Shown one piece after another: positions 259-1,571 of a stretch of DNA of 4,207 nt. The notes below the pieces were generated by a model, which saw only the letters and a program-made list of their open reading frames with translations, searched no databases and was not told where the DNA came from. Made by a program: the position numbers and the translations under genes. Location of the stretch: the NCBI RefSeq assembly GCF_003334815.1, contig NZ_QOWO01000078.1. The stretch is one strand, 5' to 3'. This DNA is from Escherichia coli. Its GTDB lineage: Bacteria; Pseudomonadota; Gammaproteobacteria; Enterobacterales; Enterobacteriaceae. The first letter of the stretch is position 1, and each line of letters opens with the position of its first letter.

Positions 259-855
259 TCACCGGAGAATATCTGTGATATCCACAAGTTTTCTGTCGCA
301 CAGCCAGTCCTGCGCTTCACGCACCACGCTACTGTCGGGTTTCACCGCTTTCAGCGATGATGCCAGTCGCTTGATCAACATAACCAGTTCCCGTGTCTGT
401 ATGTCCGGCATTGTCTCCGGCGGAGCAGAGGGACTCTCATTTCCGACGCCCATCCCATGCGCTTCCAGTGTGGCACGGACAAACCAGGCGGCATCGACCA
501 GTTGCTGGCGAATCCAGGTCAGATCGGCATTTCTGTCACGGGCTGCCATTCGCTCACCCGACAGCGCCTTGCTGATATGGCTGCGCACCAGATTATCCAG
601 GAGTTCCTGCGCTTCTTCCGGTGAAAAGCCACCTGGTATCTCTGTGCGCAACAGTCCTTTCCTGTACAGTAGCTGCAGCAGATCAATCTGCGACCGCACT
701 GCAACTATCAGTACATAACGGACAATATTCGCACTGGCGGTGGTTTCTGTATCATTCAGCAGTTCCTCCGGATCATTACCACCGGTATTGCAGAGCAACG
801 GCAACAGAGGTCGCATCCACACAGGAACCTGATATTGTTCGTCTGATTTCATCAT
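259..855 (-). CDS. Uncharacterised 198-aa protein translationally coupled to psiA (hypothetical leading-region protein)
   Basis: Minus-strand ORF ending at TGA 259..261. I place the start at ATG 853..855, which overlaps the psiA stop (ATGA) and has GGAGAA 6 nt upstream. The track's longer version begins at a GTG (886..888) inside psiA. The translation starts [21 protein letters not shown]; I recognise no domain in it. Confidence 0.75.
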   Translation of the reverse strand: MMKSDEQYQVPVWMRPLLPLLCNTGGNDPEELLNDTETTASANIVRYVLIVAVRSQIDLLQLLYRKGLLRTEIPGGFSPEEAQELLDNLVRSHISKALSGERMAARDRNADLTWIRQQLVDAAWFVRATLEAHGMGVGNESPSAPPETMPDIQTRELVMLIKRLASSLKAVKPDSSVVREAQDWLCDRKLVDITDILR

Positions 856-1571
856 ATTGCGTTCTCCAGCTTGTTCGGGATCATCCACTGCTCAAGTGCA
901 CGTACCTGTACCGGTGCACCACGACCGGCCTCACCGGCTTCAAAAATCAGCCGCCAGAGTGGTTCCTCCTGCCAGAAAAACCGGTCAAATGATGACAGTG
1001 ATGGAAAACGCCCGCACCACCCCCAGAAAATCGTTTCCAGATCATGCTCCTCAACAACACCAGACCAGCGGGACAACCAGCTTCCGACCGTGGCGGGAGT
1101 ATGAAACGCAAGGTCAATCTGCGCCTGAGCAAAACATGTCTGGTATTCCAGTTCCCGTCGTTCTGCCTCACGTTCCCGCTGGCGGCTGTATTTCTGCTCT
1201 GTCAGCGTGGTTTTCTGACGACGCCGCTCACCTTCACGAAAAGGAACGGACGGGAACAGACGATGCCCCGCATCGGATGGCAGGGGAAGAACACAGACTT
1301 CACCAAAACTTTCAATCAGTTTATCCACGGCAGCCAGCCACAGGAGACGGTTGCCATGAAATTCCTCCTTCGTCAGCGCAGGAGCAAAAAAGCGGAGATC
1401 GGTCAGCGAAATCCGGCGACTGCCATTCAGGCAGCGAAAGAAAGCGCTGGCATAAGGCCATGCTGAAAGTGTGCGTCCCTGACGACGACGTTGTTCGGTG
1501 ACAGCCACAGCCTGCATGGCGGCCTGTTGCTCTGCGCTGAGGGGGATCAGTGCCCGTGAACGTGCGCTCAT
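852..1571 (-). CDS. psiA: PsiA, plasmid SOS-inhibition protein A family (239 aa)
   Basis: 239 codons, the F PsiA length, lying immediately downstream of psiB as in known leading regions. ATG at 1569..1571 overlaps the psiB stop (ATGA) and is preceded by a consensus AGGAGG 6 nt upstream, inside the psiB 3' end. The N-terminal stretch [18 protein letters not shown] ... [19 protein letters not shown] fits my recollection of PsiA. Confidence 0.85.

Follow-up and report, generated by a model that had tools for sequence, protein, structure and literature searches.

Overlapping psiB-psiA-ygaA junctions in the leading region of an IncI-complex plasmid suggest translational coupling and imply neither a protein ratio nor a partnership

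Translational coupling at ATGA junctions, where the stop codon of one gene shares bases with the start codon of the next, is a textbook mechanism. A 4,207-base stretch of DNA, analysed here at full length and referred to as the window, carries two such junctions in succession, joining psiB to psiA and psiA to a third reading frame, orf198. A preliminary description had taken them, each with a Shine-Dalgarno (SD) sequence embedded in the upstream gene, for the classic coupling arrangement, and had concluded that the three proteins are made in a fixed ratio from one transcript and that orf198 consequently belongs functionally with psiB and psiA. We asked how much of this the overlaps can carry.

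The window belongs to the leading region of an IncI-complex conjugative plasmid. It is 99.8% identical to the Salmonella plasmid pCFSAN004175 (IncI-gamma/K1, MOBP, MPF_I), and at least 1,735 plasmids in PLSDB match it across at least 80% of its length. According to the annotation of pCFSAN004175 the gene order away from oriT/nikA is ardA, a 198-aa hypothetical protein, psiA, psiB, a 652-aa ParB-like protein, DUF905 and ssb. The minus strand of the window carries psiB, psiA and orf198 with both overlaps. The list of open reading frames places psiA at 852..1571 (239 aa), psiB at 1568..2002/2005 and the orf198 frame at 259..888, while RefSeq PGAP on pCFSAN004175 gives psiB at 1568..2002 (144 aa), psiA at 852..1571 and the hypothetical protein (198 aa, WP_000978012.1) at 259..855. 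The latter is named YgaA in the pESBL/R64-type nomenclature, which we use below. Upstream of psiB lies the parB-like gene yfhA (2057..4015, minus strand), a 652-aa frame annotated as ParB/RepB/Spo0J family and, according to the literature, an upstream member of the operon. PsiB scores 266.7 bits against NCBIfam NF010255 (cut-off 100) and PsiA 376.5 bits against NF010258 (cut-off 243). Both are thus orthologues above curated thresholds, they are adjacent, and they lie in a leading region with ssb and a parB-like gene, as in the plasmid SOS-inhibition module. Two long antisense frames on the plus strand (857..1501 and 275..718) were rejected as genes, being merely open opposite G+C-rich coding sequence with nothing else in their favor. 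The order psiB-psiA-ygaA and its overlaps are already known from thousands of annotated IncI-complex records and from published tables. In the gene table of pESBL, psiB (62112-62546), psiA (62543-63262) and YgaA (63259-63855) overlap by the same 4 nt (PMC4288162), and the same genes with the same overlaps are found in the IncI1 ssi3 operon of clinical ESBL plasmids (PMC10104558; bioRxiv 10.1101/2022.07.06.498992). Translational coupling is not discussed in the IncI1 ssi3 and pESBL papers, and our literature search found no paper linking psiA or psiB with it and no translation experiment on these genes.

Direct reading of the psiB/psiA junction bears out the ATGA at 1568..1571 on the minus strand, in which the psiB TGA (1570..1568) and the psiA ATG (1571..1569) overlap; PGAP places them identically. 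The psiB gene ends with GCA GAA GGA GGT CAG GCA TGA, and the proposed SD AGGAGG (1583..1578) is indeed present within the Gly-Gly codons GGA GGT, six bases from the ATG. Its duplex with the anti-SD is strong (-12.3 kcal/mol), a value matched by fewer than 3% of window positions. We compared this junction in five lineages: the IncI complex (the window, L008, L015, L017), E. coli IncF (L006, L007), Klebsiella IncFII (L009), Cronobacter (L010) and Pectobacterium (L005) plasmids. Although PsiA identity falls to about 46% across them, the ATGA is retained in all five, invariant at seven loci, and in each lineage an SD precedes it (-9.4 to -12.3 kcal/mol; gap of 5 nt in the duplex window). The C-terminal residues of PsiB vary (AEGGQA, SQEGAQ, AQGVAA, KAGGSR), so the purine-rich string ahead of psiA appears to be kept at the nucleotide level and not through conservation of the protein. 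DNA identity between IncI and IncF has a local peak of 0.92-0.95 at the junction, with flanks at 0.65-0.82. The F-like plasmids F, R6-5, pED208 and pAA likewise have the order parB-like-psiB-psiA with an identical junction, GAAGGAGGTCAGGCATGAGCGCACG, although their PsiA is just about 64% identical to that of the window.

Accessibility of the start regions was assessed as the predicted energy needed to open positions -18 to +7 within 1.9-kb stretches, a thermodynamic prediction for naked RNA. By this measure six of seven loci have a moderately to strongly occluded psiA start (49th-99th percentile), the exception being Pectobacterium, where it is fairly open (34th percentile). For psiB, an open start region is predicted at six of seven loci (2nd-28th percentile). 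A folded psiA start behind an open psiB start is the picture expected where arriving upstream ribosomes aid initiation. Taken together, the conserved ATGA, the SD, the predicted occlusion of the start and the analogy with native pairs tested in reporters suggest that translation of psiA is very likely coupled to that of psiB.

The second junction has the same layout, with weaker elements. The psiA TGA (854..852) and the ygaA ATG (855..853) share the ATGA at 852..855 claimed for them, as read directly and as annotated by PGAP. The psiA gene ends with AAG CTG GAG AAC GCA ATA TGA, followed by ATGATGAAA. As described, the SD GGAGAA lies inside psiA (867..862, minus strand), in the codons CTG GAG AAC, its GGAG core (867..864) eight bases from the ATG. 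The SD is moderate, at -6.4 kcal/mol, a value matched at about 19% of window positions. The junction reads ATGATG (850..855, minus strand), so that the psiA stop is overlapped not only by ATG855 (4 nt) but also by a second in-frame ATG at 852..850, whose 1-nt overlap gives TGATG, the second of the two classical layouts for coupling. The IncI1/B/O, IncK2/Z and IncI-gamma relatives examined share this ATGATG without change, and within the IncI complex the only variation at the junction is GCA/GTA between SD and start. Since ygaA DNA is at least 94% identical among the relatives compared, divergence within the complex is too low for selection on this junction to be demonstrated. Few stretches of the transcript are predicted to open as readily as the region around the ygaA start (2nd-9th percentile), which in this respect is similar to the parB-like and psiB starts. 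Reinitiation from psiA onto ygaA is plausible, with a weaker case than for psiB and psiA, and de novo initiation is likewise plausible. The preliminary reading of both junctions as coupling arrangements thus holds well for the first, where ATGA and SD are conserved in five lineages, and less well for the second, with its moderate SD and start predicted to be open.

That one transcript covers psiB, psiA and ygaA, as had been proposed, agrees with what we found: the genes are co-directional and overlapping, a simple scan of the coding strand over 259..2002 gave no promoter-like or terminator-like site, and the literature puts the IncI1 genes in one operon. This ssi3 operon is driven by a single-stranded DNA promoter and includes psiB, psiA and ygaA (bioRxiv 10.1101/2022.07.06.498992). 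Between the stop codon of the parB-like gene and the SD of psiB there is a GC-rich stem-loop with an 8-bp stem (2020..2046, minus strand); four lineages have a stem-loop at this position, their stem sequences differing, and F-like plasmids also have one upstream of psiB. At the other end, the 462-nt ygaA-ardA spacer is predicted to fold as single-stranded DNA into a long imperfect hairpin (z = -3.76). One arm of the inverted repeat lies at 39..70 and its partner beyond the window; in L001 the 32-nt arms (5832-5863 and 6039-6070) are 88% complementary and 175 nt apart. Single-strand promoters of the ssi/Frpo type have been described for the leading operons of IncI1 and F. The ygaA-ardA hairpin looks like such a promoter and appears to mark the end of the psi transcription unit. 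In the 14-kb leading region a scan against Rfam matched no family. The position of the hairpin ahead of ardA would make ygaA the last gene of the operon, which differs from the published ssi3 operon in that ygbA is also listed downstream there (bioRxiv 10.1101/2022.07.06.498992).

An ATGA overlap with an upstream SD is a classical substrate for termination-reinitiation (PMC6728339). In reporter tests 13 of 14 overlapping pairs were coupled, and of the native E. coli ATGA pairs four of five (PMC6728339). The pairs hyfH-hyfI, astD-astB, ydbH-ynbE and menD-menH (Huber et al. 2019, PMC6728339) resemble the psi junctions in their co-directional 4-nt ATGA overlap and an SD in the upstream ORF. Three features of this coupled class are present in psiB-psiA-ygaA: co-directionality on what is probably one mRNA, a 4-nt (or 1-nt) overlap and an SD in the upstream 3' end. 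Unlike those pairs, for which coupling was measured, the psi genes are known here from their sequence, and the literature places them in a plasmid leading-region operon with single-stranded DNA promoters.

We consider it probable that psiB, psiA and ygaA are distal genes of an operon, running from further upstream through parB-like-psiB-psiA-ygaA and ending ahead of the promoter-like hairpin that precedes ardA, in which coupling differs between the two junctions and implies neither a ratio nor a partnership. A ribosome stopping at the psiB TGA would most likely reinitiate at the psiA AUG, aided by AGGAGG, because the psiA start region is otherwise predicted to be folded. One stopping at the psiA TGA could reinitiate at the ygaA AUG, and de novo initiation would probably contribute to ygaA as well, its start being open and A/U-rich with a moderate SD only. 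The claim of fixed-ratio co-production does not follow from this arrangement: an overlap implies no ratio, the efficiency of coupling is gene-specific, and the ygaA start is predicted to be as accessible as starts that are initiated independently.

The overlaps might instead be neutral by-products of packing and modular recombination, each gene being initiated at its own SD without meaningful coupling. The ygaA start speaks for this, since by prediction it is no less open than those of the parB-like gene and psiB, which are initiated independently, and in this it resembles bioB-bioF, the one uncoupled exception among the native ATGA pairs, and not the coupled ones (PMC6728339). The documented bioBF case also means that an overlap by itself is no proof of coupling. 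Furthermore, a start codon overlapping the psiA stop survives where the downstream gene has decayed to remnants of 46-48 aa (L007, L010), so an overlap can outlast a functional downstream gene. The second codon of ygaA offers a further explanation: in all homologues of the YgaA N domain examined it is compatible with an A at +4 (M-S/M/T/I), confirmed on DNA in four loci, and with A at +4 after ATG a TGA arises automatically in the upstream frame. Against purely neutral overlaps stand the strong, position-fixed psiA SD in five lineages despite varied PsiB C-termini, the psiA start region that is usually predicted to be occluded, and the 13 coupled pairs among 14 (PMC6728339). We therefore regard an absence of meaningful coupling at these junctions as unlikely.

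The arrangement as such is ordinary. About 15% of co-directional prokaryotic gene pairs overlap, -4 and -1 nt being the commonest spacings. On this plasmid 4-nt overlaps join 11 of 64 same-strand adjacent pairs (8/49 in 1-50 kb and 3/15 in the leading region), and traH-traI-traJ-orf has three of them consecutively. The psiB-psiA-ygaA overlaps are real gene junctions that reflect the close packing usual in compact early operons of phages and plasmids.

A second possibility is a partnership, functional or physical, of YgaA with PsiA/PsiB, in which coupling sets the stoichiometry. Full-length YgaA is encoded in 1,692 PLSDB records, and 29 of 30 sampled full-length matches lie directly after psiA; both genes also sit amid establishment and anti-defence genes (ssb, psiB, ardA). 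These copies are all at least about 90% identical and represent one backbone lineage, so the adjacency is not independent evidence. The literature on E. coli can be read both ways: pairs spaced -8 to +10 nt encode complex subunits in 30.4% of cases compared with 6.8% for distant pairs, which raises the prior for partnership, yet for about 70% of the pairs that lie close together or overlap, the products are not partners in a complex.

The distribution of the two genes argues more directly against a partnership. A start codon overlaps the psiA stop in every lineage examined, whereas the gene it opens varies. YgaA follows psiA directly only in the IncI complex and does not co-occur with it across independent lineages, as a third component of a psi module would. 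In pAA (with GTGA) and Klebsiella pRYC11 (with ATGA) the position is taken by a protein of 104-108 aa with the N-terminus (V/M)KWRYSLRWKLP. Codon differences in orf104/108 are synonymous-only in 41 cases and amino-acid-changing in 28, and the other frames contain stops, indicating a real gene. Decayed orf104/108 remnants of 46-48 aa follow psiA in an IncFII and a Cronobacter plasmid, and an unrelated 61-aa ORF with an 8-nt overlap in Pectobacterium. F-type PsiA, in the 60-80% identity band, is encoded by at least 3,149 of the best 5,000 psiA-bearing plasmids, and where F-type loci were examined, the place after psiA is taken by orf104/108 or hok/sok or is empty. YgaA is absent from thousands of F-like plasmids with psiA. 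In the F-like plasmids named above, orf104 with its GTGA overlap or a decayed remnant with hok/sok comes after psiA, with no ygaA. Conversely, YgaA domains occur without psiA on IncI2 plasmids and in phage early regions, and four of four YgaA-domain homologues in phage or phage-plasmid loci have an ATGA overlap with an unrelated upstream gene, which suggests that the overlapping start travels with the module and not with psiA. Single plasmids point in the same direction: in the pESI-like pS19 ygaA is intact beside a psiA that breaks off near window position 1306, with psiB missing, and in CP082507 an IS element disrupts ygaA. Among IncI-complex plasmids psiA and ygaA identities are discordant (93% and 99.3% in one pair, 99% and 94% in another), indicating recombination between the two genes. 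The preliminary argument that orf198 belongs functionally with psiB and psiA is thus not upheld: the neighbor of psiA varies, most psiA plasmids are without orf198, orf198 is found beside a truncated psiA, and its phage relatives overlap unrelated genes. A partnership of YgaA with the Psi proteins is in our estimation improbable.

YgaA itself appears as a modular protein. It consists of an N domain (residues ~3-72), a middle domain (71-135) and a C-terminal motif (~150-198), each of which also occurs alone or recombined, on IncI2 plasmids, on a phage-plasmid and in the early/nin regions of lambdoid prophages. DUF551 is present in 10 of 56 aligned homologues and an Ead/Ea22-like domain in 1-2. 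The early-region proteins of lambdoid prophages (DUF551 or Ead/Ea22-like) share these shuffled domains and also have ATGA junctions in their early/nin regions; YgaA differs from them in being without a Pfam family and in its place in a plasmid leading region. The fold predicted by AlphaFold2 is all-helical, with confidence limited to the N domain (pLDDT 69.8, pTM 0.42). PADLOC returned no match for YgaA, Pfam offered nothing better than E = 0.37, the one NCBIfam match (13.6 bits) fell below threshold, PHROGs matched the C-terminal motif to unknown-function families only, a profile search of PDB sequences reached E = 0.2, and Foldseek with the model found nothing at E <= 0.001 in PDB and BFVD. 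By PADLOC, Pfam, NCBIfam and solved folds YgaA thus falls outside the known anti-defence and defence-associated families. Its location between psiA and ardA and its relatives in phage early regions make it a reasonable candidate for an establishment or anti-defence factor.

The second junction also depends on which start codon ygaA uses. Initiation at ATG 852..850 or at the upstream in-frame GTG 888..886 in place of ATG855 seems quite unlikely. ATG852 lies in frame at a distance of 11 nt from GGAG and belongs to the equally classical TGATG, and the longest orf198 ORF (209 aa) opens at GTG888. However, the N-termini of homologues, M-(S/M/T/I)-K-S, align with residues 1-5 of the ATG855 product, and PGAP chose ATG855 in five of five annotated relatives examined, so that ATG855 is well supported as the probable start. 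GTG888 was rejected, with an SD of just -3.8 kcal/mol and 11 extra residues that are without a counterpart in homologues; use of ATG852 would leave the coupling argument unaffected. A PsiA-YgaA frameshift fusion was likewise rejected, as there is no slippery sequence at GCAATATGATGAAATC.

The changing genes behind psiA could also be seen as occupants of a conserved coupling socket at its 3' end, PsiA gating a swappable early-establishment effector or acting with it, a reading we hold to be very doubtful. Seen this way, a start overlaps the psiA stop in every lineage examined, most often preceded by an SD that lies in the variable end of PsiA behind a conserved PNKL motif, and the genes swapped there are YgaA (IncI complex), Orf104/108 (some plasmids of IncF and Klebsiella) and Orf61 (Pectobacterium).

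In summary, the overlaps make co-expression of psiB, psiA and ygaA likely, while neither the protein ratio nor a cooperation of YgaA with PsiB/PsiA follows from them. In a transposon screen of pESBL under laboratory mating psiB, psiA and ygaA all fell into the class of genes that transmission does not require (PMC4288162). Caution is needed in annotation, since an ATGA overlap is no ground for assigning YgaA to SOS inhibition. Coupling of psiA to psiB, if true, would help to explain the amount of PsiA made when conjugation is followed by a short burst of expression from the single-stranded DNA.

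Beyond the conserved (W)M/V-PNKL motif, the C-terminus of PsiA (window 852..~900) differs in both length and sequence between the window and its equivalents in loci L005–L010, with tails that read ENAI, REAA, ADQSGV, RYWPEAAA or CVQQGGLSHE. The Shine-Dalgarno (SD) sequence of the following gene, whichever gene that is, sits within this variable tail, and DNA homology between IncI and IncF plasmids falls off in the same region. In pAA and Klebsiella pRYC11 the psiA stop is overlapped (GTGA or ATGA) not by ygaA (orf198) but by another conserved gene of 104–108 aa starting KWRYSLRWKLP, which the pRYC11 annotation wrongly calls 'theronine dehydrogenase'. 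In other F-like plasmids and in a Cronobacter plasmid it has shrunk to remnants of 46–48 aa located 5' of hok/sok. The gene or its remnants lie at 3217..3531 in pAA (L006), at 3226..3552 in pRYC11 (L009), and from 3217 in the IncF locus L007 and 3232 in the Cronobacter locus L010.

When the window was compared with the IncI-complex loci L008, L015 and L017, psiA and ygaA gave discordant identities: 93.2% for psiA and 99.3% for ygaA against L008, 99.0% and 94.3% against L015. Such discordance implies that psiA and ygaA have been separated by recombination among plasmids of the IncI complex. Rearranged loci were also found. In the pESI-like Salmonella Infantis plasmid pS19 ardA is kept and ygaA is intact, psiA breaks off near window position 1306, and at that spot there is no psiB, parB-like gene or ssb. 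CP082507 carries a transposase insertion at the expected ygaA site and a duplicated leading-region segment.

YgaA itself (window 259..855; homologues P0089–P0209, with loci L003, L004, L011, L013 and L014) is a three-module mosaic, and every module also turns up singly or in recombined form among proteins of phage early regions and of IncI2 plasmids. DUF551 is also present in 10 of the 56 aligned homologues, and an Ead/Ea22-like domain in one or two. The 462-nt spacer between ygaA and ardA, folded as ssDNA, gave z = -3.76 and contains a long imperfect inverted repeat with 32-nt arms (window 39..70 and, outside the window, 5832..5863 of L001) of 88% complementarity separated by 175 nt. It looks like an ssi/Frpo-type single-strand promoter that would drive ardA.

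At the psiB start (window 1999..2005, minus strand, GTGATGAAA) an in-frame GTG directly precedes the annotated ATG, which accounts for the 145-aa form in the ORF list; an SD spacing of 6 nt favours the ATG. This SD lies 4–8 nt downstream of a GC-rich stem-loop with an 8-bp stem (window 2020..2046, minus strand), located between the parB-like stop (2057) and the psiB start (2002). Across IncI/IncF, Klebsiella, Cronobacter and Pectobacterium plasmids its position is constant and the stem sequences differ, a covariation-like pattern. No T-run was found at the stem-loop on the mRNA strand. The element may serve in mRNA processing or stabilisation, or may be a partial terminator that sets psiB expression apart from that of the parB-like gene.
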